Positions 127-60,061 of a stretch of DNA of 64,000 bases are shown one piece after another. The notes beneath the pieces were generated by a model. It did not search any database and was not told the DNA's origin. It saw nothing but the letters and a program-made list of their open reading frames with translations. The DNA comes from an uncultured Verrucomicrobiae bacterium. GTDB lineage: Bacteria; Verrucomicrobiota; Verrucomicrobiia; Chthoniobacterales; UBA10450. Location of the stretch: NCBI GenBank assembly GCA_963726745.1, contig CAVSDR010000003.1, forward strand, positions 832,001-896,000, read 5' to 3'. Numbering within the stretch: position 1 is the first letter of the stretch; the number at the start of each line of letters is the position of its first letter. The position numbers were made by a program, and so were the translations under genes.

Positions 127-217
127 GATCTTGCTGCCTAACGAGTCGTCAAGCCGGCGTCCGGCATCGATTCGTTGGCTCGCCCAGAGAGGAGCGCGCC
201 CCGGCGCTCTTGGCAAC

Positions 218-1042
218 TCAGAGACCGGCCGGATGGCGGGCAGCGAAGCCGCCGGGATCGCGTCCTTCCGCATGCCAGCGCGGGCCGACGTTGCCGCCGC
301 GGCGGAAATCGGTCGTGTCCAACCGCAGCCCGGCAATGACCGCAAAAGTGTGGCCCGGGCGCGCGTAGATCGTGACCCAACGGCCGCGACCGCGCTCGCC
401 ATAGCGCAGGAAATCGCTTGAGGGCAGCGGCGTGGGCAACACCCCGGCATGATGCAGCGCAAAGGAAACCGTGCCCGAGCAATCATAGCCGCGATCCTGG
501 AAAGAGCCGTGGCCACCGCCCCAAACATACGGTTTCCCGCGCAAGCCATTCGCCGCCCAGATCGCGCGCTTGACGCTCTCTGGCGCGTTCGCGGGCGCGT
601 AGGCCACGCCGCCGCGGAGCACCGCGCGATTGCCGGAAACCACTGGCCGGCCCCCGCGATTGCCGGCCTGGCGCGGCTGGTCCTCCTCGCTCTCGTCGAG
701 CATTCCGCCGCGCTCCCGGTGCGGCCCCGCCGGATGCGGGACCCGGCCGGTAAAATAGGCGGCAGCTTCCGGTTCCTCGGGCTCGCGCTCCGCTTCGTCG
801 ACGATCTCCGCGTCGTAGACCGGAGCGCGGCGCGCTGCGGATTGGAAAGCGACCCGCAAAGGCGCGGTCGCGACCGTGTGGACCACGGCGTGCGCCACGA
901 GAAAAGGTTGCAAAACCACCCGCACCGGGTTGCGCGTCGCGCGCCGGCGCGAGCGCGCCTCGGCCCCCGCAGGCAGCATCACGAGGAGCGCGAGCGCCGC
1001 CACGACGCCCCATCTTGCTGGCTGTTTCCCTGGAAAGTTCAC
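218..1042 (-). CDS. Secreted NlpC/P60-like peptidoglycan endopeptidase (paralog 1)
   Basis: PYVWGGGH, YDCSG (catalytic Cys) and GHTFAVIAGLRLDT; signal-peptide-like N-terminus; start (GTG at 1042) uncertain. Confidence 0.8.
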   Translation of the reverse strand: MNFPGKQPARWGVVAALALLVMLPAGAEARSRRRATRNPVRVVLQPFLVAHAVVHTVATAPLRVAFQSAARRAPVYDAEIVDEAEREPEEPEAAAYFTGRVPHPAGPHRERGGMLDESEEDQPRQAGNRGGRPVVSGNRAVLRGGVAYAPANAPESVKRAIWAANGLRGKPYVWGGGHGSFQDRGYDCSGTVSFALHHAGVLPTPLPSSDFLRYGERGRGRWVTIYARPGHTFAVIAGLRLDTTDFRRGGNVGPRWHAEGRDPGGFAARHPAGL

Positions 1043-1121
1043 CCGCTTCGAGAAAGCGGGTCGCGGGCCAAGCGGAAAAATTTCCCGCGGCCCCGGCAAG
1101 GAAACTGCACCTCCCGCGGGC

Positions 1122-2732
1122 ATGTTCCGCCTCCTCCGCCGGCCTTTTCTCGCGGCGCTGGGCGCAGGGCTGCTCCTCGCGCTCGCCCAGTCGGCGCGCG
1201 CGGTCATCCTCCTCGGCAGCGGCGATCCCGCGGCGAATACCACCGCACCGGCGGGCGCTCTCGGCGATGGCGGCTGGAATTACGTCGGCCGCTTCGGCTG
1301 GAGTCTCGGCACCGCCATTGGCCCGCATCATTTCATCACCGCGAAGCATGTCGGCGTGCCCGCGAACGACTTCATCTACCAGGGAAAGGCGTACGCCATT
1401 CGCGGCGCGGTCGAGGATCCCGTGGGCGATCTGCGCATCTTTGAAATAGACGGCACTTTCCCAAGTTACGCCCCGCTCTACACCCGCGGGGAGGAGCTCG
1501 GGCGCGACCTCGTGCTCATCGGTCGCGGCTCGCAACGCGGCGCGCCGGTGTTTCTCGCGGGCATTTTGCGCGGCTGGCTGTGGGGGCCGGGCGACTCCGT
1601 CCTGCGCTGGGGCGAGAATCAGGTGAGCGCGGTCAATGGGACGACATTTCACTGCACCTTCGACGCCGGCCGCGGGCCGAACGAGTGCGCCCTTTCGCCC
1701 GGCGATTCCGGCGGCCCGGCTTTCGTGCGCGAGGAGGGCGTCTGGAAGCTGGCGGGAATCAACCACGCGATCGACAGCTCTTTTGCCGCGACCGCCAGCG
1801 GCCCCGGCCTGGAGGCGGCGCTCTTCGACGGCCGCGGATTTTTCGACGCCAGCGGGCGTTTGCTCACCGGGACCGCGCCCGCGCCCACCGGTTTTTATTC
1901 GATGCGGATCTCGAGCAAGCTCCCGTGGATCCAGAGTGTGATCGCGCCCGCGCTGGCGAACATCTCTGCGCGCGCTTTTGTCGGCGCCGGGGGCGAGGTG
2001 GCGATTGCCGGCTTCATCATCGAAGGCGATGCGACGCAGGAGAAAGCGGTGCTCCTGCGCGGGATCGGCGCTTCGCTGGCGGTCAACGGCGTCCCCGTAG
2101 CCAGCCGGCTGGCCGACCCGGCCTTGCGCCTGCACGACGACACCGGCGCGGTGCGCGCGCAAAACGATGATTGGCAGGAGGTCGACGCAGCGGCGATCGC
2201 GGCCACCGGACTGGCCCCGGGCGACGCCAAAGAGGCGGCGATTCTCGCGCGCCTGCGGCCCGGGCGTTACACCGTCATCCTCTCTGGCGCCGGCGGCCAA
2301 AGCGGCCTCGGGCTGGTGGAAGTCTACGACCTCGAGCCGACCGGCGCCTCGCGCCTAACGAATCTTTCCACCCGCGCGCGCACCGGCGCGGGCGACAACG
2401 TGCTCATCGGTGGGATCGCCTTTCACAGCAGCACCAATGCGCTTCTGCTCCGCGCGCTCGGGCCCAGCCTGGGCGCGCTCGGCGTGAGCGGCGCAATGGC
2501 TGATCCTTCGCTGGAGCTGCGCAACAGCGACGGCGCGCTCGTGGCCAGCAACGAAGCCTGGCAGCAAGATGACCACGCGGCCGAGCTGCAGTCGCGCGGC
2601 CTGGCCCCGGCCGACCCACGCGAAGCCGCGCTCCTCCTGCGGCCAGCGCCCGGGAGCTACACCGCGATCGTGCGCGCGGCCGGCGAGCTTTCCGGCGTCG
2701 TTTTGCTCGAGGCTTTTCTGGTCCAGCCCTAA
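1122..2732 (+). CDS. Secreted trypsin-like (S1) serine protease with two C-terminal N[IL]S[AT]R repeat domains
   Basis: Signal peptide; ITAKH, DL and GDSGGP triad motifs; two ~120-aa repeats beginning LANISAR and LTNLSTR. Confidence 0.8.
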   Translation: MFRLLRRPFLAALGAGLLLALAQSARAVILLGSGDPAANTTAPAGALGDGGWNYVGRFGWSLGTAIGPHHFITAKHVGVPANDFIYQGKAYAIRGAVEDPVGDLRIFEIDGTFPSYAPLYTRGEELGRDLVLIGRGSQRGAPVFLAGILRGWLWGPGDSVLRWGENQVSAVNGTTFHCTFDAGRGPNECALSPGDSGGPAFVREEGVWKLAGINHAIDSSFAATASGPGLEAALFDGRGFFDASGRLLTGTAPAPTGFYSMRISSKLPWIQSVIAPALANISARAFVGAGGEVAIAGFIIEGDATQEKAVLLRGIGASLAVNGVPVASRLADPALRLHDDTGAVRAQNDDWQEVDAAAIAATGLAPGDAKEAAILARLRPGRYTVILSGAGGQSGLGLVEVYDLEPTGASRLTNLSTRARTGAGDNVLIGGIAFHSSTNALLLRALGPSLGALGVSGAMADPSLELRNSDGALVASNEAWQQDDHAAELQSRGLAPADPREAALLLRPAPGSYTAIVRAAGELSGVVLLEAFLVQP

Positions 2733-3409: not shown

Positions 3410-3442
3410 CCGCAGAGTCTAGGGAACGTCCCCGCCGGCACG

Positions 3443-4732: not shown

Positions 4733-4814
4733 GCCGATGCCATAGATGTTCCGGCGCGAAAACGCCAGCGGGGCCAAAAGCGACGTCGCCTGCGATTCCT
4801 CTAGAGCACCGCTT

Positions 4815-5330: not shown

Positions 5331-5332
5331 AC

Positions 5333-5635
5333 ATGAACCTCCCAACGAAATATTTTCTCGTCACCACGCTCGCGCTTGCGGGACTTTTCCTTGGCGGCTG
5401 CACCTATGGACCCGGGGGCGGCGTGGGCGTTTACGCCTCTTCCTATCCGAGCTATCGGGGCTACTACCGCGACTACGGCTACAGCGGCGCCCCGTTCTAT
5501 GGCTACCCGCGGGCCTACGGCACGAGCATCGTCGTCTCTGGCCGGAACTACTCCCGCGGCTACGGCCGGCACCATTATCGCGGGCACCGTCGAAACTACG
5601 GGACTCGCTCCTGGCGCGGGCCGAGGTATCGTTAG
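5333..5635 (+). CDS. Small Tyr/Gly/Arg-rich lipoprotein
   Basis: Lipobox LGGC after a hydrophobic stretch; low-complexity YGR-rich mature part; operon-like spacing. Confidence 0.65.
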   Translation: MNLPTKYFLVTTLALAGLFLGGCTYGPGGGVGVYASSYPSYRGYYRDYGYSGAPFYGYPRAYGTSIVVSGRNYSRGYGRHHYRGHRRNYGTRSWRGPRYR

Positions 5636-15966: not shown

Positions 15967-18071
15967 ATGAATTGCTCGCTCCGGATCGTTGGTCTGCTCG
16001 CGCTCATCTCGCTGGCTGTTTCCGCAAACGCCGCGCCGGAGGCGACGCTTGTCCCTTTCCGGTTAGAGGCGCCGCAGGCACAGGCGGTTTTCCTCGCGGG
16101 CGAATTCAATCATTGGAGCACGAGCGCCACCCCGATGCAGCGCGACGGCCAGGGCCGCTGGAGCGTGAGCGTGCCCCTGCTTGAGGGGCAGCACAGCTAC
16201 AAGTTTCTGATCGACGGAAAGTGGGAGATCGATCCGATGAATCCCGAGGTCACGACCGATGGCTTCGGCGGGAAAAACTCGGTCGTGAAGGTGATCGACG
16301 ATCGGATCGATCCGGTAGTCGAGGAGAAGGACGCGGTCGGCGCAGAAGCGGCGCGGCTGCTCGGGCAAGGCGAATTCGCAGCGCTCGAAAAACGCGCGCA
16401 GGAATATCGCGAAACCAAGGCGTGCTATTCCGATGGCCTCTGGATGTTGACCAATTTCTACGACGGCTTGGGCGCGGAAAACGAAATGCGCGACCATGCG
16501 GATTGGCAGCCTTGGTTTGAAAAAATCGAGCGCTGGGGCCGCGAGTTTCCCGAATCGATCACGCAGCCGGTGGTATTGGCAAACGGCTGGCGCAAGTATG
16601 CCGAAGAGGCGCGGAGCGTGGCGCCGCCGGGCGATGAAAAGGCGCGCGCCACTGGCCAGGGAACGCCTCGCAAAAGCGCGCACCATCCTTAAGGCGGCCG
16701 AGAATTTGCCAGCGCGTTGTCCGGTCTGGTATTCGGCCATGCAACAGCTCGCGCTCGCGCAGGGCTGGGAGCGCGAGGAATTCGAAAAGCTGCTGGCCGC
16801 GGCTGCGGGCGCGGAGCCGACCTACTATTCCTATTACGCGAATGCGGCGCTCTATTTTCAGGGCCAGGGGCGCGGCGCGTGGGAGAAAGTGGCGGAAGAG
16901 GCAGCCGAGAAATACGATCCCGCGGAAGGCATGGCCGCGTATGCGCGCACCGTTTGGTTCATGGAGCCGCGCTTCGGGAACCTCTTCGCGGAATCGGTCG
17001 TCGCCTGGCCGAAGCTGCGCCAGGGCTTTCTCGAGATCGAGAAGCGCTACCCGAATTCGCGTTGGAATTTAAATGCCTTTTGCCGCTTTGCGGTCCGCGC
17101 GGGCGACCGGCAAACAGCCAGCGAGCTCTTCGCTCGCATCGGCGCGAAGGGCGACCCGGATTGGGGCGGCTACGCGAGCTATGAGATGGCGCGGCTCTGG
17201 GCCGACCCGGCGACGCCTTCCTGGCGGATCGCTCCCATCCGCACGCTCAAGCCGAAATCGATCGTGCACGCCCTCGCCTTCTCGCCGGATGGCGGTGGTG
17301 TTTTCCGCCGATGGCAAGATGCTCGCGGCTGGGGCCGGTCAAACCTGGCGACCGACGGAGCCGGGCGTGGCCAAGGTCTGGGAAGTCTCGAGCAAACAAG
17401 AGATCGCCGCGGGCAAACCCACCGGCGTGGTCTGGAAAGTCGCCTTCACCCCGGATGGCAAAACCCTCGCGCTCTCCGGCGGGCAATGGGAAAGCCAGGC
17501 CGAGTCGAGCCTGCTCGACCTGGCGACGAAACAACTCCGCGCGCTTCCCTGGACTACGGGGCACGATCACGTGCTCAAGGGCGTGGCCATCTCGCCGGAT
17601 GGGGAGTCGCTGGTGACGGATTGTTATCAATCGATCACGGTCTGGAGTTTGACCGAGAACCGCGTTGTCTTCGAGCAGCGGAAGGTGCTGAAGGATTTCG
17701 TCCTAAAGCTCGCCTTCGCGCCCGACGGCAAAACGCTCGTGACCTGCGGCGCACCGATGCGCGGGCACAATGATGCCGAGCCGGGCGAGCTCACGCTCTG
17801 GGACACGACAACATGGAAACCGCGCAGCCCGCGCGCGCAAACCGATGCCGGCGGTCTGGTGGCGGTGGCTTATTCCGCTGATGGAAAGTGGATCGCGGGC
17901 GGCGGCTACGATCGTGCGGTCCACGTCTGGGACGCAGCGACCTTGGAGTCGAAAGTGATCTACCTCGGACACGAGGACATGATTGATGCGGTCGCCTTCT
18001 CGCCCGATGGCGCCATCCTGGCCTCCGGCGGCTACGACGGCACGATCAAGCTCTGGCGTTTCCCTCGTTAG
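15967..18071 (+). CDS. Secreted multidomain protein: CBM48-like, DUF4034-like helical and WD40 propeller domains; two frameshifts (~16650, ~17295)
   Basis: V.LAGEFN.W...G.HSYKF.IDGKW..DP.NP in ORF 15967; helical region continues in ORF 16496; WD40 repeats in ORF 17073. Confidence 0.65.
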
Positions 18072-19682: not shown

Positions 19683-21419
19683 ATGCCTGGTCCCGCTGAC
19701 TTCATCCAACGTTCGGTGCACGCCCTCGAGGCGGGTGGTCTTGCGGTCTGGGTGCGACGCGGCCTGGCCTTCCTCGTGATCGTCTTGCTGGCTCTTTTTT
19801 ATCTGATCCACGAGTTCCGCGGCCTGGCCACTTCGCAGGCGATGGACCAGGCGCAGATCGCGCGCAATCTTGCCAACGGCGAAGGCTTCCACACCGATCT
19901 CATCCGCCCGCTGGCCATCGGCCAGTTGCAGCGCGCCAACAAGGATGTCGCCCGGCGCATCTGGTCGGATACCTACAACGCGCCGCTCCCGCCGCTGGTC
20001 AACGCGGTCGCGCTTCGCCCGCTCAAGAGCCATTGGAAAATGTCGCCCGCGGAGGTGGTTTACTCCGGCGACAAGATCATCGCATTTTTCTCGATCTGCT
20101 TCTTCCTCGCCTCGGTCGCGGTCCTCTTTTTCGTCGCCCGCCGGCTCTTCGACGACCGGCTCGCGATCCTCGCCTGCGCGCTCATTCTCCTCTGCGATAT
20201 GATGTGGCAATACTCGCTCTCGGGTTTGCCGCAGATGCTGCTCCTCTTCCTTTTTAACAGCACGCTCTACGTGCTCGTGCGCGCGGTCCAGGCGCAGGCC
20301 GCCGGCGGCCGTGTGGGCCTTTGGCTGGCCGCGGTCGGCGCTGGTTTCGGGCTGCTGGCGCTCGCGCACGCGCTCACCATCTGGATCTTTTTCGCAGCGC
20401 TGGTCTACGCAGTGTTCTACTTCAAGCCCCGCGGCTGGGCGGCGCTGATCATCCTCGGAGTGTTCCTGCTTTTCTATGCGCCTTGGCTCTTGCGCAATTT
20501 CATCCTCACCGGCAATCCCGCGGGCGTGGCCTGGTATTCCGTCCTCGATGGAATCAACCAATCCGAGGCCGGCTACATGCGGCATCTCTCGATTGATTTC
20601 TCCACGATCACGCCCGGCCTGTTTAAGAATAAATGGACCGGCAATCTGCGCACGCAGCTCGGCGGTGTCTTTGGCTACCTCGGCTGGAGCGTGGCCGCGC
20701 TTTCCTTCTTCATTAGCCTGCTCCATCTCTTCAAGCGCCGGGAGACGGCGGCCATGCGCTGGCTGGTCCTGGCGATGTGGGCCGGGGCTGCTCTCGGGAT
20801 GGTGGTCTACGGCGTACACGAGGAACAAGGCGTGGCCGCGAACCAGCTTTACCTGCTTTTTGTCCCGATCATGACCTGCTACGGCCTGGCTTATCTCCTG
20901 GTGCAATGGAACCGCCTGGAGATTTCGATGAAGCTCGCGCGCATCGGCTTCATTACCCTGCTCTTTCTCCTCTGCGCGCTGCCGATGTTGCTGAACATGT
21001 TCCTGCCGCAGACGAACCGGCCTGGGGTGCATTGGCCGCCTTACATCCCGCCGTTTATTTCCGTGCTGAACGACTGGATGCGCCCCGAGGAAGTGATCGC
21101 TTCCGACATGCCGTGGGCGGTCTCGTGGTATGCCGATCGCCGCTCGATCTGGCTTCCGGAAACCGTTCCCGCATTCACTGAGCTGCACGATTACGGCGTC
21201 GTCGGTGCGCCGCTTAACGGCCTCTACCTTACGCCCGTCAGCGGCAGCCAGAATACCCTCAGCGACATCCTCAAGGGCGAGTATCGCGACTGGGCTGCGG
21301 TCATTTTGCGGAGTATCGATATCTCGAAGTTCCCGCTGAAGTGGGCTACGCTCCTCGGGCTGGAAGGCGAGTGCGTTTTCTTCGCCGATGTCGACCGCCA
21401 GCGCCTGCCTGCGCCCTAA
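19683..21419 (+). CDS. GT-C (GT39/ArnT-like) multi-pass membrane glycosyltransferase
   Basis: D.AQIARNL..GEG and PLPPL near the N-terminus; more than 10 hydrophobic segments; soluble C-terminal domain. Confidence 0.6.
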   Translation: MPGPADFIQRSVHALEAGGLAVWVRRGLAFLVIVLLALFYLIHEFRGLATSQAMDQAQIARNLANGEGFHTDLIRPLAIGQLQRANKDVARRIWSDTYNAPLPPLVNAVALRPLKSHWKMSPAEVVYSGDKIIAFFSICFFLASVAVLFFVARRLFDDRLAILACALILLCDMMWQYSLSGLPQMLLLFLFNSTLYVLVRAVQAQAAGGRVGLWLAAVGAGFGLLALAHALTIWIFFAALVYAVFYFKPRGWAALIILGVFLLFYAPWLLRNFILTGNPAGVAWYSVLDGINQSEAGYMRHLSIDFSTITPGLFKNKWTGNLRTQLGGVFGYLGWSVAALSFFISLLHLFKRRETAAMRWLVLAMWAGAALGMVVYGVHEEQGVAANQLYLLFVPIMTCYGLAYLLVQWNRLEISMKLARIGFITLLFLLCALPMLLNMFLPQTNRPGVHWPPYIPPFISVLNDWMRPEEVIASDMPWAVSWYADRRSIWLPETVPAFTELHDYGVVGAPLNGLYLTPVSGSQNTLSDILKGEYRDWAAVILRSIDISKFPLKWATLLGLEGECVFFADVDRQRLPAP

Positions 21420-21444
21420 CGACCGCTCTCCCCTTCCCTTTGCG

Positions 21445-31514: not shown

Positions 31515-33047
31515 TCACAGGGTTTTCAGGAATTCCACCAGCGCTTCCTTCTCTTCGGGCGTGAGCTCAGTGCCGTAGAGATGCCCCCCATTTCCCTCGC
31601 CCCGCCGGCGGGTGTCGAAGAGAAAGAAAGTGTCGGCTAATTCCCCGCGCGGCCCGAGGCGGCGCGGCTCCGGTTCCTTCCAACCGACTTTCACCGGATC
31701 GAAAACGTCGTAGCCGCGGTGAAAGGTGACCGGGCGTTCCGCCGGCGGATTGAGCAAATCGCGCAAAGTCGGCACGGAACCGTTGTGGAGATAAGGCGCG
31801 CGCAGCCAGAGGCCGTCGAGCGGCGGCGAGATGTAGCCATACGGATCGAGCTCGGTCATCGGCGGCCGGTCGATGCCCATCTCCTTCACTTTCCGGTTCG
31901 CTTCTTCCGCAGCTGCTTTCGACCAGGAATGCATCCGCTCCTCGTCCGTGCCGACCTCGGCGATGGGGATGACTTTGTTCGTGCGGTCGCCGCGCGGCTC
32001 GTGGCAACCGGCGCAATCCCGCGCGTAGATGCGGCTGCCAGCTTCCGCCCGGACCGGATCGATCGGATGCGTCGCCGCGAAAGGCCACGCGGGCGGCGGG
32101 AGATCGCTCAAGTAGCGGTCGAGGTCGGCCATGCGCTGGAGGAACCACGGGCGCGGCGGCGCGCCCAGACCCATCGCGGAATCGATCAAGACCGAGCGCA
32201 CCGCGGGCGTGTCGCCGGTCCAGTTGAGCAGCATTTGCCGGCCGTTTTTATCCTTCCCGCTGCGAATCCCGAGATTCCAGATCGAAGGAAAATCGGTCGG
32301 GCCGACGCTGTTGTCCTCCTTCTGCTGGGTCATGAAATACTTCGTTAGGTTCATCGCGTCGTCGCGGCCGGGGCCCCACGCCGGCTTGGCCGTACCGTCC
32401 CCGACGAAACGCTCCATCCAGGTGAACTGCTTCTCCTGCTCCAGGAGCGCCTTCCTGGTGAAAGGAATGAGCACGTAGCGGTAGATCTGGCGGTCGAGGA
32501 AGCTGAGGCCGCCATTCCCGTACTGGTTGCCGCTAACCAGGCGGATTTCGTTCATCAAGGTCTCGGAGTTAAAGCGCGGATCGTGCGCCGCCTTGAACAT
32601 AAAACGGAGGACATCCTGGAGATTATTCGTATGCCCGGGAGCAGCCGCCACGACCTTGGGTGTCTCTTCCTCGCTGAGGCGATAGGTCGCGGTGTGGCAG
32701 ACGGCGCAGTTATTTGTCACCCGCTCGAAGCCCACGGTCTTTTTCGAGAAACCGACCGGCATCTCCGCGCCTTCTTCCCAGATGATTCCAAAGGAAGTCC
32801 AGCCGCCCGGTCCTGGCAGGAGATCGGCGAAAAGCCGCGGCATTACCAGCCAGATGAAGTAAGGCAGCCCGCGATCACCTTCCGCGCCTAACGAGCCGTA
32901 TTTAAATTGCTCTTCCTCGCTGGCGAAGACCTGCGGCCGCTCGCGGAAAAATTTCACCCAGGTGAGCCAGCCGCCAAAAGCCGCGAGCAGAACCAACGAG
33001 ATCAGGCTCACCCCGAGGAAGCGTTTGGTTTTAGGCGACAACTTCAT
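31515..33047 (-). CDS. Membrane-anchored diheme cytochrome c, RoxA/MauG-like (paralog C)
   Basis: N-terminal TM; CAVCH and CAGCH; PPLDGLWLRAPYLHNGSVPTL; GNGGH.YG...ALVEFLKTL. Confidence 0.85.
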   Translation of the reverse strand: MKLSPKTKRFLGVSLISLVLLAAFGGWLTWVKFFRERPQVFASEEEQFKYGSLGAEGDRGLPYFIWLVMPRLFADLLPGPGGWTSFGIIWEEGAEMPVGFSKKTVGFERVTNNCAVCHTATYRLSEEETPKVVAAAPGHTNNLQDVLRFMFKAAHDPRFNSETLMNEIRLVSGNQYGNGGLSFLDRQIYRYVLIPFTRKALLEQEKQFTWMERFVGDGTAKPAWGPGRDDAMNLTKYFMTQQKEDNSVGPTDFPSIWNLGIRSGKDKNGRQMLLNWTGDTPAVRSVLIDSAMGLGAPPRPWFLQRMADLDRYLSDLPPPAWPFAATHPIDPVRAEAGSRIYARDCAGCHEPRGDRTNKVIPIAEVGTDEERMHSWSKAAAEEANRKVKEMGIDRPPMTELDPYGYISPPLDGLWLRAPYLHNGSVPTLRDLLNPPAERPVTFHRGYDVFDPVKVGWKEPEPRRLGPRGELADTFFLFDTRRRGEGNGGHLYGTELTPEEKEALVEFLKTL

Positions 33048-33050
33048 CGG

Positions 33051-34616
33051 TCAAAAAGTCTTGAGGTATTCCACCAGCGCGTCCTTCTCCGCCGGCGAGA
33101 GCATCGTCCCGTAGGCGGCGCCTTCGTGGCCCGTATTCAGGTTGCCCTCGTTGCGCTCGCGCGGCGTTGCGCCCTCGCGCGGCTGGGTTTCGTAACGAAA
33201 GAAATGCCGTGGATTGGCCGGGTCATCGAGGCTGGTGCCATCCTCCCGGAAATGCCCGGGCTCAGAGACAAAGCCGAGCTTCGCCTGGTCGTAGACATCG
33301 TAGCCGCGGTAGAAAACCTGCGGCCGCTCAGCCGCGGGATTGAGCAGGTCGCGCATCGTTGGCACAGAACCGTTGTGCAGATAGGGCGCGCGCGCCCAGA
33401 CGCCGTCGAGCGGCATGTTTGCGTAGCCGTAGGTTTTGCGGAAACGATGGAAGCGCCACGGGTAGCCGGCGTAGAGGTTGTTCTGCGAAGCGGCCAGCTG
33501 GTGCGTGTAGGAATCGAGCCGATGCCGGTCGGTCCCGATCTCAGCGATCGGCACCACCTGCCCGACCTGCGCGCCTTCGAAATCGCGGCCGCTACGCCCG
33601 TGGCAGCTCGCGCAGTATTGCGCGTAGATCGGCGCGCCTTGGGCCGCGCGCGCCTGGTCGATCGCGAAAGGATACTTTGGCGGCTCCTTGGTCAGGAGCC
33701 AGCTCTCCAGCCGGCTTACTTGTTTTAAGTCGATCGTTGGCGGAAACGTGCCGGTGCCGAAGGAGGCGCTCTTGTTTCGTTCTTCCATCTTGTCGTTATT
33801 CCCATCCCAATGCGCGTGCAGCCCGCGCTCTTTCCGCTGCCCTTGCAGCCAGATGGAGGGGAAATCGCACAAGCCCACCAGCTCCCGCGTTTCCAGCTTC
33901 TCCAGCGGAAACTCGAGCAGCGTCTTCGCCGGCGTGAAAGTATCGGTGCGGCCGGGACCTTGGGCTGCTTCCCAATCAAGAAAACGAAAATGACCCGCGA
34001 GAAGTAAGAGCCGCTCGCGCATTAGCGGAATGGCGTAGAAGCGCATGATCTGGCGGTTGAGGAAATCGTAGTCCGCCCCGATGCCTTGCATCTCCGCCAT
34101 GAGGCGATCAGCAGTAAAGCGCTGGTCCGCGGCACAAGCGAAGACAAAGCGTTCAAACGCGCCCAGGTCGACTGTGTTCGACGGCATCCCGGTGTGGAAC
34201 ACCGGCGGGCTCGCGGGGGTTTCCCGCACGGAGCCGACATGGCAGATGGCGCAGTTTAGGAAGACGCGATTAATCCCCTGGGTGTTCCGCTGCGAGACTC
34301 CCACCGGCAAATCCTTCCCGTCCTCATAGAGAAAACCTAACGAGACGTATTCTTTTCCCGGGACATATTGCTTTCCGGGCAAATACTCCGGAAACATTTT
34401 AGGCAGCACTTTCCAAATCCAGATCGGGATCCCGGATTCCCGCTCGCCGCCGGTGGAACCATACTTGAAGTGCTCCTCGAGGTCGGCATAAAGCACCGGC
34501 TGGTCGCGGTTAAAACGCTGGAGATAATGCAAGGCCACGAGCGTGAGCAGGGCCACCCAGACAAGGAACACGAAACGCCAGCGCGCCTTCCGTTCTTCTA
34601 GGTCCGGCTCAGCCAT
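33051..34616 (-). CDS. Membrane-anchored diheme cytochrome c, RoxA/MauG-like (paralog B)
   Basis: N-terminal TM; CAICH and CASCH; PLDGVWARAPYLHNGSVPTM; NTGH...ALVEYLKTF. Confidence 0.85.
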   Translation of the reverse strand: MAEPDLEERKARWRFVFLVWVALLTLVALHYLQRFNRDQPVLYADLEEHFKYGSTGGERESGIPIWIWKVLPKMFPEYLPGKQYVPGKEYVSLGFLYEDGKDLPVGVSQRNTQGINRVFLNCAICHVGSVRETPASPPVFHTGMPSNTVDLGAFERFVFACAADQRFTADRLMAEMQGIGADYDFLNRQIMRFYAIPLMRERLLLLAGHFRFLDWEAAQGPGRTDTFTPAKTLLEFPLEKLETRELVGLCDFPSIWLQGQRKERGLHAHWDGNNDKMEERNKSASFGTGTFPPTIDLKQVSRLESWLLTKEPPKYPFAIDQARAAQGAPIYAQYCASCHGRSGRDFEGAQVGQVVPIAEIGTDRHRLDSYTHQLAASQNNLYAGYPWRFHRFRKTYGYANMPLDGVWARAPYLHNGSVPTMRDLLNPAAERPQVFYRGYDVYDQAKLGFVSEPGHFREDGTSLDDPANPRHFFRYETQPREGATPRERNEGNLNTGHEGAAYGTMLSPAEKDALVEYLKTF

Positions 34617-34627
34617 GCGCGCTCCAC

Positions 34628-35068
34628 TCAGTCCACCGGAAACTCCAAGGCGAAATCAATCAGCCGCTTCTTGCTCCAGAAGACCTTGCCCAGGTAAGTC
34701 CCGGGCGCGACCAGACGGATTTCATCCCGGATCCAATGGGCCACGAGCGAGGTCTCGGAATAATCCAGGACGATGCACTCCTTCTGGTCCATCCAGCTGG
34801 GTCCTTTGTAAACTTTTGCCAAAATGGCACTCAGGCCGAAGGGAAGAATCTTGTTTCGGAGCACTCCTTTGGCCGGATCAAAGACCTTCCCCTGCCAGGC
34901 GAAATGATTGACGAAGGTCGCAATCTCATCGGTGAAACGCGTTCCCGGGGCGACGATTGCGGTGCCTTTAGCTTCCCCGCTGGGGATTTCGCCGGCTGGA
35001 GCCTGGAGAAATAACTCATCCAGCTGTTCCTGCGTCATCTTCATCAACTCGGCGACAGTGTTTGGCAT
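34628..35068 (-). CDS. Small hypothetical protein, probably beta-rich
   Basis: AGGAG ribosome-binding site before ATG at 35068; WQGKVF, IVLDY, IRDEIR and YLGK. Confidence 0.7.
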   Translation of the reverse strand: MPNTVAELMKMTQEQLDELFLQAPAGEIPSGEAKGTAIVAPGTRFTDEIATFVNHFAWQGKVFDPAKGVLRNKILPFGLSAILAKVYKGPSWMDQKECIVLDYSETSLVAHWIRDEIRLVAPGTYLGKVFWSKKRLIDFALEFPVD

Positions 35069-35089
35069 AGGTCTCCTTTCGTTAGGCAT

Positions 35090-37270
35090 TCACAGCGTCT
35101 TCAGGAATTCGATCAGCGCGCGCTTATCTTCATCGGCAAGGTCGGTGCCGAAGTAATGGCCTTTGTCTTCCACGAAATCGGGACACTTATTCGCCGCCAG
35201 CATCTCTGGCACGGCCTTGATCAGTTCTGCAGTCGCTTCATCGCCCTCCAGGTGGCGCGCCTTGATCGCGACGAAGGCTTTCAGGAGTTTTGCCTGAATG
35301 GCCACGAGGTCACCCAGGTCCGGCTTTAAATTAGCCAGCAAGTTCACTGGCGTGCCTTTCGGCACCGGGCCGAAGTTCAGGTAACCATCCTTATCCGCAA
35401 AAACGCGCAGCGGCTTGGGAACAAATTCCTTTGCCAGGTGGAGGTAACACTCGTTCTCGGTGCGCCAGATGGAATTCCGGCCCGGCCGTTTCTCCGGCCA
35501 GAGAAGCTTCTCTGCCGCATCCTGGAACGCGGCCAGCCTTCCGCCTACCGAAGGATCGCCATTGAAGTTCCCGAGCGCGTTGTTATGCAGGAACGGCGCA
35601 GAACTCCAAATGCTCACCAGGGACGGCGTGCGGTAGTAGCCGGCCCCGACGTCGCGCTCGGCCGGCTTGTAGCTGATCGGCTGAGTTTCGTCGAAAGGAT
35701 TCAGGAAACTCATCTCTCCGGGGCGCGGCAGTTCTTTGTAGGTCTTGGAGGAGAAGTTATCCCAGATGTGGCCGGCCATGGCGTTGGTCCCAAAGGCGCG
35801 CGCGGAGTTCGTCTTAATCTGGTCGACCGGATAACGCTTTTCGTTCGAGAGGAAATTATCCTGGAGGAACTCGGGCTTCATGACCTCGGCCAGGAACCAG
35901 GCTTTTCCTTCGGCCGATTGCGGGTCGGTGCCCGCGGGCGGTTGCTTGCTGGAATGGCAACCGGCGCAGCTATTGGCAAAGACTTGCCGGCCACGATTCA
36001 TCACGGTGGCGTCCTGGGTGATGAAGGTCGCGCCGCCCGGCGCGTCGGCTAATTTGTAAGGCTGCAAGCGGCGAAAGAAGGCCGCGATGTTCCCCAGCCG
36101 TTCCTCCGTCGCGCGCCAAAAGACAGAGTGCTCGCGCGCATACGGAATCTCGAACGGCTTCTGCGGGAGCAGCCCGATGAGGCGATTATGCCGGGTAAGC
36201 CAATACTCCGAGAACATGCCGATATTCACGTAAACCCGGATGGTCGCGCCGGGCACGCCGATGGAATCCGCGCCATCCTTGAGGATGTGCGCAACCGGCA
36301 TGACCGACTCGGTCCCGGGCAATGCGAGGGTGCCGCCGGCGAGGGTTTCCTCGTGGGCGATGCGCTCGCGTTCCCCGAGAAGGAAGATGGCATTGATCGC
36401 GTTCGGATTATTCAAGTGATCGGTCGCGATGCGTGAGGTGTCGGAAGTGCCCGGGGGCTGCGCCCGCAGCATTTCGTAGAAGAAGCCACCCTTAGCCACG
36501 TTCGGGGCGAAGACGCGGCCCTCGCGCAGGTATTGGTTCCCGATCGCGGAGGCGAGATTCTCCCAGCCCGGGTTCTCGGGATCAGCCGGCGGATTGGTCG
36601 GCAGCGGCGCGATATGGCAAGCCCCGCAGGAAACGCCTACGCGGTATGGCCTAACGAGCGATTTTTGGTTGTAATAGGAAGGATCGTTCAGATAGCGGTT
36701 GCCATCCCACTTCTGGCGCGCCGCGGCATCGAAAGCCGGATTCGGGAAGAGGCGAAACCCGAGCACGCCGGAGGCCTTGCCGTAAACTTTTTCATCGATC
36801 CCCGCCGGTTCCGGCTCGACCGGCTGATCCAGCCAAAGTCCAAACTCATCCGGCTGGCTCGCGGCGCGGAAGCCCGGCTGGTTGATCACCCCCAGAGTCT
36901 TGAAGCGTTCTCCGCGCGGATACTTTCGGTTATCCAGCGTCTTCAAAAGATCCATCAAGCCAAAGCTGTCCTGCGCGACTTCGTTCCAAAAATGCTGGTT
37001 CCCGCCGGTCCAGAGATTCCAGGCATTCCGCCCCATGATTTCCTCCGGCAGGAGCACCAGTCCGCCGTCCATTTTGGCAAAGACATCCTCGGTTACCTGC
37101 GGAAAGTCTCTTGTCGTTAGGCGGGCGGCTTTGGCTTCATCCACCGGGTCGCGATCGCAACCGCTGGCGAAGAAGAGGAAGAGGAGGAGCGCACCGCCGA
37201 GATAGAGCTTCCACGTGCGACCGTGGCTCACGGCTGCCGGGCTGCTTTGCGTTGGGGGAAACGCGTTCAA
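35090..37270 (-). CDS. Large lipoprotein diheme cytochrome c, RoxA/MauG-like (paralog A)
   Basis: Lipobox-like FFASGC; CGACH and CAGCH; YYRTPSLVSIWSSAPFLHNN; GHYFG...ALIEFLKTL; start uncertain. Confidence 0.82.
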   Translation of the reverse strand: MNAFPPTQSSPAAVSHGRTWKLYLGGALLLFLFFASGCDRDPVDEAKAARLTTRDFPQVTEDVFAKMDGGLVLLPEEIMGRNAWNLWTGGNQHFWNEVAQDSFGLMDLLKTLDNRKYPRGERFKTLGVINQPGFRAASQPDEFGLWLDQPVEPEPAGIDEKVYGKASGVLGFRLFPNPAFDAAARQKWDGNRYLNDPSYYNQKSLVRPYRVGVSCGACHIAPLPTNPPADPENPGWENLASAIGNQYLREGRVFAPNVAKGGFFYEMLRAQPPGTSDTSRIATDHLNNPNAINAIFLLGERERIAHEETLAGGTLALPGTESVMPVAHILKDGADSIGVPGATIRVYVNIGMFSEYWLTRHNRLIGLLPQKPFEIPYAREHSVFWRATEERLGNIAAFFRRLQPYKLADAPGGATFITQDATVMNRGRQVFANSCAGCHSSKQPPAGTDPQSAEGKAWFLAEVMKPEFLQDNFLSNEKRYPVDQIKTNSARAFGTNAMAGHIWDNFSSKTYKELPRPGEMSFLNPFDETQPISYKPAERDVGAGYYRTPSLVSIWSSAPFLHNNALGNFNGDPSVGGRLAAFQDAAEKLLWPEKRPGRNSIWRTENECYLHLAKEFVPKPLRVFADKDGYLNFGPVPKGTPVNLLANLKPDLGDLVAIQAKLLKAFVAIKARHLEGDEATAELIKAVPEMLAANKCPDFVEDKGHYFGTDLADEDKRALIEFLKTL

Positions 37271-40315: not shown

Positions 40316-41642
40316 TCACGAAAAAGTTGCGTGCGCCAGCCATCCCAGCGCGAGCAGATCCAGCAGCAGCGCGCCAGCCAGGAGCGCCTCGAGCATCCGC
40401 GGGACCCGGCGCAACCAGTCGTTAGCCAGCGAGATCAGGAGGAACGGCAAAAGCGGGAGGAAATAGCGCCCCTGGAAACCCTGCACGCGCGGCGCGCCCA
40501 CGGCATTCCACATCGAATAAATCGCGAACTCCGCGGCCACGAAACCTGCGAGCGCCGTCGCGAAAAAGAGCGCGCGCATGGGCCAGGAGAGGCGCAACGT
40601 TCCCGGCTCCAGCAGGCAAACGCCAAGTGCGAGGAGCAGCAAAAATCCCAGCACGAGGAACCATGGCAGCGGGAAATTGAGCCAGCCGAAAACGCCGATC
40701 ATTTCCCGCAGGTGATTCACGCCGAGCTCGCGCAGGTCGGTCAGCATCGCGCCGAGAAACCTCGCCCGGAGCCTGCTGGAGAAGCGCCAACTGGCCCGCG
40801 GGATTGGTCGTGATTCCCGGGCGCATCTGGTTGAAAAGCGCGGGCAATTGCGCGCTCCAGGCGAGATACGGCACGATGAAGGCGCTGGCTAAAAGGGCGC
40901 GCAAACCCCAGCCCCGCGTCCCGGTGCGCCCAGGCAGCGCGAAGACCGTCAAGACCAGGAGCGGCGCGCGCGTTTGCGAAAGCAGGAGCGCCAGCACCAC
41001 CAGCCACACCTGTTCGTCCAGCGTGAGCGTCCCCCGGCTGCGCGCGCGCAAGAGTTCCGCGCACCAAAGAAAAGCCAGCGGGATGGTCACGCTATCGGCG
41101 CTCACGACGCCCAGTTGAAAAAGCAGCATCGGAATGAAAGCGAAAACTCCCAGCGCCTCCGCCCCTGGCGGGAGGCGCCGCAAAGCGAGCACGAGCAAGC
41201 CCGCGCCGCAGAGCGCGCCGGCCAACCGGGCTGCGTAGAAAAGCACCAGCGGCCGGTGTTCCACCGAGCGGACGAGCGCGATCGCCGCGGCCTGCGGCAG
41301 GTAAGTCACCGGCGAGTAGAGCGCGCTCCCGGGAAAATTGGCCCACGCGCGCTTGTGCGGACGCAGGCGCACCTGGCTGCCGAGGCGAAACTGGCCGCGG
41401 CTGGTTTCGATCTTTGCCGCGCGCGGGAACTCGCCCGCGGCGGTCGCAAGTTGCAGCAAGCTGGCCGGCAATTCCCCGCCGACGACGCCTCCCGGTCCGC
41501 GCTGCGCGAGCCATTGGCCTTCCGAGACCTGGTAGGCGCGGAAGAAATGGCTCGGCTCATCCGCGCCGCGAAACGGTCCGGTCACGAGGGGAAACGCGAG
41601 CGCAAAAGCGAAAACGGCGAAGCTGGCGAGGCGCGTTCTCAT
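40316..41642 (-). CDS. DUF2142 family (GT-C-like) membrane protein with a +1 frameshift near 40765
   Basis: PFRGADE.SHF.RAY, YSP..YLPQA and S.D; next frame gives IG.FGWL...GFQGRYFLP. Confidence 0.75.
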
Positions 41643-41793
41643 CCGTAGAGGGCGAAGGTGGGGAGTTTTCCCCGCCGGGGCGAGCCGCAAAAGCGAAAGC
41701 GCCGGCTAATTTTAGACAGCAAATTGGGCGGAAAAGGCGGTTTCTCCCTCGTAAAAAAATGTTACAATTCTGTGCTTGAGCGGGGCTGCCTGA

Positions 41794-51283: not shown

Positions 51284-51289
51284 TGTTCG

Positions 51290-52393
51290 TTAGGCCAGGA
51301 CCGCCGGCGCCGGGATTTCTTCACGCGGAAGCGTGATCGTAAACACGGAGCCTTCGCCGAGCGTGCTCTCGACCGTGAGATCGCCGCCCATCGCGCGCGT
51401 CAGCTCGCGGCTGATCGAAAGCCCCAGGCCGACGCCCCGTTGCCGCGAGTCGATCCGCTGCCGGTCCACCTGCACGAACGGCTCGAAGATGCGCTCGAGA
51501 TGTTCCGCCGGGATGCCGTAGCCGGTGTCGCGCACGCGGATGCAACCGCGCCGCGCAGCGGCCTCGCATTCCACCGAGACGAGGCCGCCACGCGCGGTGA
51601 ACTTGATCGCATTAGTCAGCAAGTTCAGCAGCACTTGCTGGAGCCGGTCGGGGTTCGCCCGCACCGCCAGGTCGGGGTCGCAACCAACTCGCGAATAGGC
51701 GATCCCGGCTTCGTGGAACTTTGGCGTGAGCAAGACCTCCGCCCGCTGGACCGCGCGCTGCACCGGCACCGTTTCGGTGCGCATCTCCGCCTGCCCGGAT
51801 TCCAGCCGGGCAAAGTCGAGAATGTCGTTTAACAGGCGCACCAGCTCCTCGCTCGCCTGCCGGATGGAGCGCAGGTCGCCGATCTGCTCCTCGTTCAAAG
51901 GACCACTCGCGCCAGTCGTAAGCAGGTCGCAGTAACCGGTGATCGCCTGCAGCGGCGTGCGCAATTCATGCGACATCATCGAGAGGAATTTCGCCTTCGT
52001 GTCGCTGGCTGTTTCCGCCAGTTTCCGCGCCTGGATCAATTCCTCCTCGAAGCGCGTCCGCTGGAGCATGCGCATGAAGATGCACTCGTTCACCGCTGCT
52101 GCGCCCCCGGTGCGCCGGACGGCGTTCGCCAGCACCGGGATGTCCGTGCCCGCGCGCGAACGGAGCGAAAGGTAAACCTCCTCCACCTCGCCCTTGAGCT
52201 TTAGGATCGGAAAGAAATGCGTGTGGTAAAAAATCTTTCCGCCCACTCCGCAAAGGAGCTCGAAGTGTTGTCCCACCAATTCCTCCGGTTCGTTGCCCAG
52301 GAGGTGCGCCAGGGTGCGATTGCACGCGGTGATCTTGCCGTCATCGGCAAAGGCGAGATACCCGCACGGGGCCTGGTCTAACGAGGGATCCAT
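51290..52393 (-). CDS. Cytoplasmic PAS-domain sensor histidine kinase
   Basis: RsbP-like PAS (APCGY...IFYHTHFFP); SHELRTPL, NLLTNAIKF, DTGYGI and GLGL. Confidence 0.9.
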   Translation of the reverse strand: MDPSLDQAPCGYLAFADDGKITACNRTLAHLLGNEPEELVGQHFELLCGVGGKIFYHTHFFPILKLKGEVEEVYLSLRSRAGTDIPVLANAVRRTGGAAAVNECIFMRMLQRTRFEEELIQARKLAETASDTKAKFLSMMSHELRTPLQAITGYCDLLTTGASGPLNEEQIGDLRSIRQASEELVRLLNDILDFARLESGQAEMRTETVPVQRAVQRAEVLLTPKFHEAGIAYSRVGCDPDLAVRANPDRLQQVLLNLLTNAIKFTARGGLVSVECEAAARRGCIRVRDTGYGIPAEHLERIFEPFVQVDRQRIDSRQRGVGLGLSISRELTRAMGGDLTVESTLGEGSVFTITLPREEIPAPAVLA

Positions 52394-55092: not shown

Positions 55093-55172
55093 CCCGGGAG
55101 AACACCGGAAGCCGCGCGCGCGGTCAAGCCGGGGCTTGAAGCGGCCGCAGTTCACGCGGAAAGCATTGCTCG

Positions 55173-55961
55173 ATGAAGCTTCCTTACTTCGAAGTCGCGG
55201 CCTTCAGCCCACGCGCTTTTGCCGGCAATCCCGCGGGCGTTTGCCTCCTGGAGGAATGGCTCCCGGATGCGGTCATGCAGGCGATCGGCGCGGAGAATAA
55301 CCTCGCCGAGACCGCTTTCGTCGTTCCGCAAGGCGACGACTTTGGCCTGCGCTGGTTTACGCCCACGAGCGAGATCGATCTCTGCGGCCACGCCACCCTC
55401 GCCTCCGCGCATGTGCTCTTCCGGCATCGCGGGCTCGCGGGCGACAGCGTGCGCTTTCATTCGCCGCACAGCGGCCCGCTCGGGGTCGCGCGCGTCGGCG
55501 ACCGCCTGGTGCTCGATTTTCCCACGCGCCCGGTCGCGCCCTGCCCAGTCACGGAGGAAATAGCCAGCGCCCTGGGCGCGCGGCCGGTGGAGCTTTTCCA
55601 GGCGCGCGATTACCTCGCGGTCTTCGAAAACGCCGCGCAAATCCGCGCGCTCCGGCCGGACATGGCGCAGCTGATCTCGCTGCCTAACGAGGGCGTGATC
55701 GTGACCGCGCCGGGCGACGATTGCGATTTCGTTTCCCGCTTTTTCGTGCCGCACCACGGAATCCCGGAGGACCCGGTCACCGGCTCGACTCACTGCAATC
55801 TCATCCCCTTCTGGGCCGAGCGGCTGGGCAAGACCACCCTCCATGCGCGCCAGATTTCCGCGCGCGGCGGCGAACTTTTCTGCGAACTCCGGGGCGACCG
55901 CGTCCGCATCGGCGGCCACGCCGCGACCTACCTCACAGGCGAAATCGAAATCCCGGACTAA
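55173..55961 (+). CDS. PhzF family isomerase
   Basis: GNPAGV, NLAETAF, LRWFTP..EIDLCGHATLA and EDPVTGS. Confidence 0.92.
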   Translation: MKLPYFEVAAFSPRAFAGNPAGVCLLEEWLPDAVMQAIGAENNLAETAFVVPQGDDFGLRWFTPTSEIDLCGHATLASAHVLFRHRGLAGDSVRFHSPHSGPLGVARVGDRLVLDFPTRPVAPCPVTEEIASALGARPVELFQARDYLAVFENAAQIRALRPDMAQLISLPNEGVIVTAPGDDCDFVSRFFVPHHGIPEDPVTGSTHCNLIPFWAERLGKTTLHARQISARGGELFCELRGDRVRIGGHAATYLTGEIEIPD

Positions 55962-56674
55962 CGAACAAAACTCGCGCCGTTAATGTCGAGCACCGCGCCG
56001 GTCATCGAGGCCGGCGCTTGCAGCGCGAGATAGGTGATCACGTTGCCTACTTCCTCCGCGCTGGCCACGCGGCCGAGCGGGATCTCTTTCAACAAAGCCT
56101 CGCCCCCGCGGCTGCTCAGGTATTCCTCCGCCATCCCGGTCATGGTGAAACCGGGCGCGACCGCATACGCCAAAATCCCTTCGCCCGCGAAGCCGCGCGC
56201 GATCGACTTGGTCACGCCCACGAGCGCTGCCTTCGACGCGGCGTAATGCCAATGCTCCGGCGAATCGCCGCGATAAGCTGCGCGGCTAACGACATTCACG
56301 ATCCGCCCGCCGCCGCCGCGCGCGCGGAAATGGCAAACCGCCAGCCGGCAAAGATCGGCCGCGGCCTGGAGATTGATCTGCATCGTCCGCTGCCAGAGCG
56401 CGCGCCAGCTTTCCGCGCTCTCGCCCACGGAAGCGCGCTCGTAGATCCCGGCATTGTTGATCAGCACGTCGATCCGGCCGTCGAGCCGATCGAGCGCTTC
56501 CTGCCACAGATGTTCCGCCGCCTCGGGCTGCGACAGGTCGGCCGCGAGCTGCATCTCGCCGTCTATTTTCGAGCCGTGACCTACCACGCGTGCGCCCTGT
56601 CGCTCGAGTTCCACGCGCGCGGCCGCGCCGATCCCGCGCGTGCTTCCGGTTAATAAAACATGCGTCGCACTCAT
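55958..56674 (-). CDS. Short-chain dehydrogenase/reductase
   Basis: TGSTRGIG, NNAG, YAASK and APG. Confidence 0.9.
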   Translation of the reverse strand: MSATHVLLTGSTRGIGAAARVELERQGARVVGHGSKIDGEMQLAADLSQPEAAEHLWQEALDRLDGRIDVLINNAGIYERASVGESAESWRALWQRTMQINLQAAADLCRLAVCHFRARGGGGRIVNVVSRAAYRGDSPEHWHYAASKAALVGVTKSIARGFAGEGILAYAVAPGFTMTGMAEEYLSSRGGEALLKEIPLGRVASAEEVGNVITYLALQAPASMTGAVLDINGASFVR

Positions 56675-57747: not shown

Positions 57748-57778
57748 TTTGTGAAAGCGCTGCCTAAATTCTTCGGGA

Positions 57779-58666: not shown

Positions 58667-59647
58667 TGCTCTATTCCATTCTCGATCTTTCCCCGGTGCG
58701 CGAAGGGGGCAATGCCGCGGAGGCCTTCCGCCACTCGGCCGACCTCGCGGTGCACGCGGAGCGCTGGGGCTACACGCGCTATTGGCTGGCGGAGCATCAC
58801 AACATGCCGGGGATCGCGAGCGCCGCGACCTCGGTGGTGATCGCGCACGTCGCCGCGGCCACGAAGACCATCCGCGTCGGCTCCGGCGGCGTGATGCTGC
58901 CGAACCACGCGCCGCTGGTCGTAGCTGAGCAATTCGGCACGCTCGAATCGCTTTACCCGGGCCGGATCGACCTCGGGCTGGGCCGCGCGCCGGGGACGGA
59001 TCAAACCACCGCGCGCGCGCTCCGGCGTTCGCTCGGGAGCAACGGCGACACTTTCCCCGACGATCTGCTCGAGTTGCAGGCGTATTTCCGGCAGGAGGTG
59101 GGCGCGGTCAGCGCGGTTCCCGGGCGCGGGCTGGAGGTGCCGATCTACTTGTTAGGCTCGAGTGATTTCAGCGCGCAACTGGCGGCCGAGCTCGGCCTGC
59201 CGTTCGCCTTCGCCTCGCATTTCGCGCCCGATTATCTGCCGGTGGCGATTGCGCTCTACCGACAAAATTTCAAGCCTTCCAAGGCGCTGGCAAAACCACA
59301 CCTGATCGTCGGGATCGGGTTGTATCTTGCGGAGACGGATGCGGAAGCGGCGCGGCTTTTCACCTCCGCGCAGCAGATGGGGCTGGCGTTGATCCGCGGT
59401 CGCCCCAGCTTGCTGCCACCCGCCGGTGGAGAGCATGGAAGGGCGCTGGAATCGCGGAGAGGAAAATGCCGTCCGCCATCGCGGGACCTACGCGATCGTG
59501 GGATCGCCGGAAACCGCGCGCGCGAAATTAGCCAGCATTCTCGAGGAGACGGGCGCGGATGAATTCATCGCCGTAAGCCAGATCTACGACCACGCGGCGC
59601 GGCTCCGTTCCTACGAGCTGGGCGCGGAAGTTTTCCGCTCGCTCTAG
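58666..59647 (+). CDS. Luciferase-like monooxygenase (LLM class) with a +1 frameshift near 59420
   Basis: [28 protein letters not shown] and GLGRAPG; C-terminus ...VGSPE...GADE...RLRSYEL in the next frame. Confidence 0.88.
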
Positions 59648-59653
59648 CACTCG

Positions 59654-60061
59654 TTAGGGCAAAGGCGGCGGACCGCCGGGCCGATGCTGCCGCCGGAGCA
59701 TCTCCTCGTGGTGCGCGCGCATTTTTTCCAGCTCGGCCAACTGCGCGGGCGTGAGCAGCGGCTTCATTTGCTCGTGCGATTGCTCCATCGCCTGGCGCAC
59801 CCGCTGGGTGGTCTCGCCGCGGATGCCTTCGAGCTGCGCGCTCAGCTGCTCGACGATCGGATCGATCGCGCGCGCCTGGTCCGGAGTCAGCTTCAGTTGC
59901 TCGCGCAAATGCAGCCGCATCCGGTCATCCAACGGTCCGCCGTGCGGTGGTCCGCCGCGGCGGTGCATCTGGTGCGCCGCGCCCAGGAATCCGGTGGCGA
60001 TGCCGGCGAGGTAAACCACCACGAGCGCGACCGCGATCCAGATTTTAGCCGACGCGTTCAT
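59654..60061 (-). CDS. Membrane-anchored Spy/CpxP-like (LTxxQ) protein
   Basis: N-terminal TM; LKLTPDQ and LTPAQ; ATGA overlap with the anti-sigma gene. Confidence 0.75.
   Translation of the reverse strand: MNASAKIWIAVALVVVYLAGIATGFLGAAHQMHRRGGPPHGGPLDDRMRLHLREQLKLTPDQARAIDPIVEQLSAQLEGIRGETTQRVRQAMEQSHEQMKPLLTPAQLAELEKMRAHHEEMLRRQHRPGGPPPLP

Follow-up and report, generated by a model that had tools for sequence, protein, structure and literature searches.

Sequence-biased DNA uptake has been established in only two proteobacterial families, according to PMC1939737, and molecular drive has been proposed for uptake sequences, uptake being the known process of this kind (PMC7811141); such sequences are reported to inflate the counts of tripeptides (PMC2817400). 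In addition, R and L boxes are described for the att sites of integrons (PMC4792948), secondary attG sites have been reported (bioRxiv 10.1101/2022.09.11.507474), and transformation is said to feed chromosomal integrons (PMC12614218). Here we describe the iterated word CTAACGA (motif A) in a 64-kb window (G000:C3:832001-896000, the whole stretch of DNA under study) and throughout its source, the metagenome-assembled genome G000 of a soil bacterium of the Chthoniobacterales (Verrucomicrobiota; 3.41 Mb, 7 contigs, 95% complete), where its consensus is GCCTAACGAG. Together with a second word, motif B, it may be read by a protein, probably during DNA uptake or recombination.

Abundance, maintenance and spacing of motif A

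The window contains 38 exact CTAACGA sites (23 on the plus and 15 on the minus strand), compared with 2.81 ± 1.38 (maximum 8) in 100 dinucleotide shuffles. All 38 sites listed in the original prediction were real, with coordinates correct within one base, and the full 8-mer it claimed at 28 of them was recovered as CCTAACGA, while GCCTAACGA is present at 24 of the 38; the GC content, put there at about 66%, was measured as 64.2%. According to our own gene calls, 29 sites lie in coding sequences in four frames, six form stop codons and three are intergenic. Site 40419, counted among the 29, is more likely the stop of a DUF2142 open reading frame (ORF; 40422-41690).

The enrichment extends beyond the window, with 2,025 copies across all seven contigs of G000 at 0.45-0.70 per kb. 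CTAACGA is the top 7-mer of this genome under order-2 and order-3 Markov models, whose expectations it exceeds 15- and 10-fold, respectively, and it exceeds that of an order-4 model 5-fold, so that a generic CTAA/TTAG tetramer bias is insufficient to explain it. The profile of the motif in G000 is G (0.87) C (0.75) CTAACGA G (0.64) T (0.44), with A or T at position +11. Most single mismatches in the core are as frequent as expected or rarer. Flank variants and CTAACAAG show enrichment, and no cloud of decayed copies was found in G000. Since near-misses of the core are not enriched and the flanks are graded, motif A is actively maintained.

To relate the word to coding constraints, we used 2,973 genes from our own, imperfect caller. 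They hold 1,461 copies, 12-fold more than the 123 of synonymous-codon shuffles (20 shuffles) and also more than the 583 of a codon-pair Markov model. As it occupies four coding frames, stops and spacers and exceeds the synonymous shuffle, the word is a DNA-level, frame-independent signal, as had been proposed, and it survives the codon-pair control. The Leu codons used by motif A are the two rarest in G000 (TTA 2.8%, CTA 1.3%), and the motif forms 180 of the 877 TAA and 124 of the 1,061 TAG stops. The tripeptides PNE (247 versus 97 expected) and SLG (765 versus 465 expected) are inflated, with 184 and 491 of them, respectively, encoded by motif A. Stop usage in G000 is nearly even at 64% GC (1,061 TAG, 1,035 TGA and 877 TAA), and motifs A and B account for several hundred of the TAA/TAG stops.

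In stretches of negative skew, motif A is found 531 times on the plus and 504 times on the minus strand, where other 8-mers are skewed 65 versus 13, and its Spearman correlation with GC skew is 0.07; this replichore test bears out the predicted dispersal without strand polarity. We took GC content at third codon positions (GC3) and gene content as proxies for acquired DNA: the genes of lowest GC3 are 4-fold poorer in the motif, and accessory stretches of up to 32 kb lack it entirely. Gaps longer than seven means number 8 versus 1.8 expected, the longest being 32 kb, and these deserts fall in polysaccharide and giant surface-protein clusters. The single 16S gene holds no copy, with less than one expected anyway.

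The copies exclude each other locally. In G000, the density of A-A pairs falls to 0.3 of baseline at distances under 80 bp and returns to baseline near 400 bp; at 12-300 bp it is 0.50 of baseline, the lowest value among 500 control 7-mers save two words of the same motif. Within single genes, 14 pairs closer than 100 bp were observed versus 51.5 expected. The exclusion is alike in all four orientations and is fitted nearly equally well by linear (425 bp), exponential (174 bp) and step (334 bp) functions. Nothing convincing was found in G000 for a preferred spacing or a period below 250 bp. Any mechanism has to account for this exclusion range of about 400 bp.

Distribution, integron sites and motif B

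GCCTAACGAG was found in all 301 genomes of the family, from 6 copies in 2.6 Mb up to more than 400 per Mb, a more than 100-fold range of density in which this 10-mer undercounts genomes with a relaxed final G. Motif A densities reach 0.6-1.7 per kb. Sixteen genomes from other families of Chthoniobacterales hold 0-14 copies and 199 extra-family genomes across Verrucomicrobiota 0-5 copies (three overlap with the order's 16); the latter counts show that the backwards-pattern control used in the genome searches puts the background too high. The predicted lineage specificity therefore stands inside Verrucomicrobiota, where the dispersed word is restricted to one family, but not beyond: a metagenome contig that clusters with Gemmatimonadaceae carries 20 copies in 20 kb of housekeeping genes, or about one per kb. 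This contig was picked because it held two copies, and its assignment comes from protein clustering.

Codon alignments with relatives (about 72% DNA identity, 100-295 kb per relative) were used to trace the sites. Motif A sites of G000 are also present in the motif-rich G013 (26 of 76), in G015 (14 of 72), G005 (3 of 43) and G017 (3 of 18), as compared with 0 of 28 in G046 and 0 of 52 in the motif-poor G062. At unshared sites the relatives mostly show synonymous codons in gap-free alignment, and amino-acid differences occur at motif codons at a rate of 0.36-0.48 versus a background of 0.26-0.28. Motif A was thus placed by substitution, not insertion. At identical tripeptides, sites are shared more often than independence predicts (odds ratio 3.9, p 0.007; 25 both and 28 neither, against 12 and 15). 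In a polymorphism check one run shared 0.17 of words, the contigs compared being a mixture of distant relatives. Of 12 viral loci from two scans, one is both GC-rich and word-rich, and an attC array accounts for 8 of its 11 copies. On L217 (1-3600), a contig of the viral collection that has tail-like genes, eight attC cassettes of the same type form an array.

The R box of integrons reads GTTRRRY, and motif A equals the R box plus spacer of the attC and attI sites of Chthoniobacterales integrons. At 32 loci, 22 of the 25 sites resembling attI carry CTAACGAG, as do almost all of the 26 attC R'' ends; the search pattern fixed CTAAC plus two non-T letters, so that mainly the GAG was tested. Outgroup hits of the word are attC R'' ends in cassette arrays, and one genome, G028, has it only in att sites. 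In G000, about 16 of the 2,025 copies are true att sites; the dispersed ones lack a partner box or hairpin, and a single A-B pair lies at attI spacing. Neither ATCTAACGA, which is present in 6 of 13 attC sites of G000 (7 versus 6.8 genome-wide), nor the R'-type word CTAACCA is enriched in this genome. No intI was found in G000. In a panel of 60 genomes, 41 encode IntI. Among them are 9 of the 11 outgroups, where it passes its cut-off and the dispersed word is missing. The clades of IntI compared with motif A density gave 11 changes versus 9.9 in shuffled data. IntI presence and clade were rejected as determinants of the motif, as neither tracks its density.

G000 has an integron platform at C6:736573-745330, with 13 homogeneous attC sites and an attI, and a second one at C4:149590-151070, with an attI and one attC; both are without intI and adjoin a similar small gene pair. 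The array cassettes of G000 have a median length of 525 bp. At L155-L184, the position of attI varies: some genomes have it about 145 bp upstream of intI, others downstream of the intI 3' end. These attI sites have an extra inverted arm.

Motif B, SAWNTYGYYGGCTAWTT, has about 2,580 copies in G000 according to a mixture model over all 26,137 CTA sites, and aligns in register with motif A on a G.CTA core. Downstream of its left arm, CTA is enriched 42-fold and TTA 7-fold. A strict B pattern occurs 376 times in G000, 84 times in G046, an unpublished genome of another genus, and at most 29 times in each of the 299 others; B is thus abundant in only two of the 301 family genomes. The dialect of G046 differs from that of G000, with 1 of 21 sites common to both. 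The B left arm is found on 153 of the 2,025 motif A sites in G000 versus 2 of 390 in B-free relatives. A conversion of dialect A to B was rejected, as none of 99 pure-B sites of G000 is an A site in a relative and none of 132 relative-only A sites is B in G000. A dif candidate at a GC-skew peak was likewise rejected as a source of B, since it is unconserved in four relatives and overlaps a stop codon; dif was not identified.

B-B exclusion resembles that of A-A and extends to about 400 bp in all orientations, while A-B pairs are undepleted (1.0-1.3 of baseline). Motif B is evenly spread (2 gaps longer than seven means versus 2.4 expected) and is kept in accessory regions, with 105 copies versus 123 expected in the ten longest A deserts. 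That A and B exclude themselves yet ignore each other, and that deserts hit A only, indicates different readers or steps. On the B matrix, the distal inverted arms of 24 attI sites score 1.1 versus -3.9 ± 0.8 for shuffles, with 2 of 300 column permutations as high, and one outgroup attI carries two near-perfect B copies; most attI arms have T where B has its near-invariant G at -5. Judged from these scores, B appears to resemble attI arms, a link weaker than that between A and the att sites.

The features of the window are as follows:

138-59657, 23 plus and 15 minus: motif A, CTAACGA at 38 dispersed positions (GCCTAACGAGT as consensus across the genome; exact matches, genome profile)
752-63954, 20 plus and 30 minus: motif B, 50 dispersed SAWNTYGYYGGCTAWTT sites predicted by the mixture model (posterior >0.5, some false)
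127-147, plus: hybrid site, B left arm and A right part on a common G.CTA core (sequence, hybrid statistics)
55673-55693, plus: hybrid site within a PhzF-family gene (sequence)
40416-40436, minus: hybrid site whose TAA closes the DUF2142 ORF 40422-41690 (sequence)
21416-21422, plus: motif A as the TAA stop of a PMT_2 gene (gene calls)
51287-51293, minus: motif A as the TAA stop of a histidine kinase gene (gene calls)
55958-55964, plus: single motif A copy stopping two convergent genes, TAA on the plus and TAG on the minus strand (gene calls)
5629-5635, minus: motif A as the TAG stop of a plus-strand gene (gene calls)
18065-18071: motif A as the TAG stop of a plus-strand gene, like the 5629-5635 site (gene calls)
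41695-41726, no strand: inverted, overlapping pair of motif B, intergenic (mixture model)

The window also holds a tandem trio of genes with RoxA-like cytochrome c domains (31515-37270). In the coding DNA of G000, GTAC is strongly avoided (517 versus 6,272), and it stands at 0.16-0.43 of expectation in G000 and six relatives; an orphan N6/N4 methyltransferase at C3:981 kb is a candidate for this avoidance.

Explanations for the iterated words

Our best single reading, with a probability of roughly 0.45, is a drive like that of the DNA uptake sequences (DUS), in which a sequence-biased reader would act on short fragments. The original prediction of an uptake-like signal is to this extent retained, but it had overlooked the identity with integron att sites and the second iterated motif. 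Motif A would represent the binding preference of a protein that chooses short pieces of DNA for recombination into the chromosome, most likely serving a step of natural transformation. If word-bearing fragments of a few hundred bases were favored, alleles creating the word would spread and those breaking it would be replaced, which is molecular drive; a second copy on the same fragment would add less, giving rise to local exclusion, and accessory DNA without homologous donors would stay empty of A. The orientation-free exclusion, the core-genome bias and the graded consensus fit such a drive with one site per fragment, and a toy fragment model with a length of 430 bp and partial redundancy matches the profile, as a matter of consistency, its parameters having been fitted. 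Motif B would then be a second, independent drive with its own reader in few lineages.

That two phyla share the word could be explained if the reader were tuned to the word marking integron cassette ends in these soils. In its full form, in which an integron-linked reader, either a cassette-harvesting uptake receptor or an att-binding factor moving between lineages, wrote both attI half-sites independently over the core genomes of two soil phyla, this extension is possible but doubtful. We infer the fragment size from the spacing and the cassette harvesting from the identity of the word.

The search for competence genes gave a mixed outcome. G000 encodes intact comEC, dprA, type IV pilins and pilus ATPases, but these genes do not discriminate, and comEC occurs in 40 of 41 genomes, with and without the motif. 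This and the following observations weigh against an uptake-type drive. No candidate reader or receptor was found that tracks A or B. Two PilX-type cassettes fail to do so, and cassettes of PilV/W/X were rejected as the two readers, being present in 17 of 50 genomes, including the A-poor G062, and absent from many A-rich ones (one query protein, one PilX-type family and 50 genomes were covered). A ComEA-like nuclease-HhH protein is full-length in 16 of 19 A-rich versus 6 of 16 A-poor family genomes, in a panel chosen by trait with six mid-density genomes excluded and kin that are not independent; in G000 it is cut before the HhH domain, and intI splits likewise (16 of 19 versus 7 of 16). In three relatives taken together the exclusion is less strong (0.69-0.74 within 300 bp, from 78 pairs), and G149 alone shows little of it; in pooled metagenome loci it is clear only below 100 bp (0.41), followed by 0.84-0.99. 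Inverted-repeat terminator pairs of A were not seen in G000, where opposite-strand pairs closer than 30 bp number 4 versus about 17 expected. Furthermore, recurrence in two phyla does not resemble the behavior of a self tag, A and B ought to exclude each other if their receptors worked in parallel, which they do not, and any process for which one site per about 400 bp suffices gives the same spacing.

The minor pilins of G000 include two paralogous three-gene cassettes (C3:584383-586936 and C6:623578-626133) that are patchy in the family. The ComEA-type protein is a family-wide fusion of a nuclease-like part, by eye of SNase type, with HhH (L120-L134); in G000 the nuclease part stands alone at C4:17230-17874 and an HhH remnant lies elsewhere (C2:230178-230280).

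It is unlikely that an integron integrase or another att-binding tyrosine recombinase reads A and B inside the cell as two kinds of half-site, with gene conversion over tracts of a few hundred bases biased towards the site-bearing allele. The presence of CTAACGAG in most attI-like sites and attC R'' ends, the attI distal arms scoring above shuffles on the B matrix and the alignment of A and B on G.CTA, as R and L boxes do, speak for it; IntI is reported to act on non-canonical genomic sites (bioRxiv 10.1101/2022.09.11.507474), and movement of integrons between lineages fits a cross-phylum word. However, G000 lacks a detectable intI, most outgroups with IntI have no dispersed word, the IntI clade does not track density, G028 has the word in att sites only, ATCTAACGA and CTAACCA are unenriched, and the T of most attI arms replaces the G of B at -5. 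Insertion hot spots in genes should also be selected against.

Improbable, too, is a repair ratchet directed by methylation or nicking, as in the Elhai model for HIP1, where a newly arisen site designates its own strand as template if no older one lies within signalling range, so that sites build up to about one per kb. In such a ratchet, sites should exclude each other locally and level off at about one per 1,000 nt (PMC4390886), with which the densities of 0.6-1.7 per kb agree; B, being even and present in accessory DNA, behaves as expected for a process acting on any resident DNA, its patchiness suggests a mobile determinant, and mutS and mutL signature motifs are present in G000. By contrast, both words are non-palindromic, long and graded, unlike methyltransferase targets, and the methyltransferases seen in G000 amount to a single N6/N4 enzyme, a C5 enzyme at the end of a contig and fragments of type I systems. 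Two signals feeding one MutSL pathway should, moreover, exclude each other.

Less probable still is direct selection for binding sites of an abundant protein that organizes or protects the chromosome and requires no more than one site in about 400 bp. Local exclusion, the excess sharing of sites at identical tripeptides and the lack of excess long gaps in B would suit such a protein, but A tolerates long deserts, its density varies more than 100-fold in the family, and preferred spacing or a clear period below 250 bp is missing. Finally, an artefact of codon usage, dicodons or base composition, or an origin as remnants of inserted cassettes, is refuted by the synonymous shuffles, the codon-pair model and the codon alignments: dicodon counts absorb part of the signal (674 copies versus 403 in the commonest frame) and about 16 copies are true att sites, but the word uses the two rarest Leu codons, is found in four reading frames of genes as well as in stops and spacers, and stands opposite synonymous codons in gap-free alignments with relatives.

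Comparison with known systems

A literature search (subscription papers and supplements lay outside its scope) found no description of the word, of genome-wide integron cores, of an uptake sequence for Verrucomicrobia, Udaeobacter or Gemmatimonadaceae, or of any such non-palindromic iterated word. If true, an uptake-type drive would be a third case of sequence-biased uptake, in common soil Verrucomicrobiota, and an integron-site word common to Gemmatimonadaceae would tie DNA uptake to cassette traffic. If the integron-linked reading were true, the sequence drive would be aimed at mobile cassettes and not at self DNA. Two self-excluding words together with a 100-fold density range over 301 genomes form a natural comparative panel for readers.

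Motif A resembles the uptake signal sequences (USS) of Pasteurellaceae and the DUS of Neisseriaceae, as these are described in PMC7811141, PMC2817400, PMC1939737 and PMC12616744: its thousands of non-palindromic copies show no preferred orientation, arose by point mutation, inflate tripeptide counts, are scarce in acquired DNA and have graded flanks; even spacing is reported for USS and DUS. Competence genes are present as well, the ComEA-like protein of G000 being truncated. Unlike USS and DUS, it has no terminator-type inverted pairs, doubles as a stop on both strands, is common to two phyla, equals an integron site and shares its genome with a second, independent word. Because inverted terminator pairs and a family-specific self tag are lacking, we do not file it as a member of this class.

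With the integron attC R'' end and attI simple site, motif A has an identical CTAACGAG, and B resembles attI arms. In contrast to att sites, the dispersed copies are without partner box or hairpin, lie in core genes and show no relation to the occurrence of intI. Two bases ahead of the core, dispersed motif A prefers G, a position at which att sites tolerate either A or G. Like HIP1 and alternate HIPs of cyanobacteria, as described in PMC4390886 and PMC5861425, the motif occurs about once per 1-2 kb of coding DNA without polarity, and alternate words are likewise sporadic in some lineages. Unlike HIP1, it is non-palindromic, longer and graded, and no cognate methyltransferase was found among the few enzymes of G000. 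Chi, KOPS and AIMS are also short non-palindromic words over-represented genome-wide (PMC5861425), but these octamers are strand-biased, whereas motif A is without strand bias and its exclusion is orientation-free. Motif A is not HIP1, Chi or KOPS.

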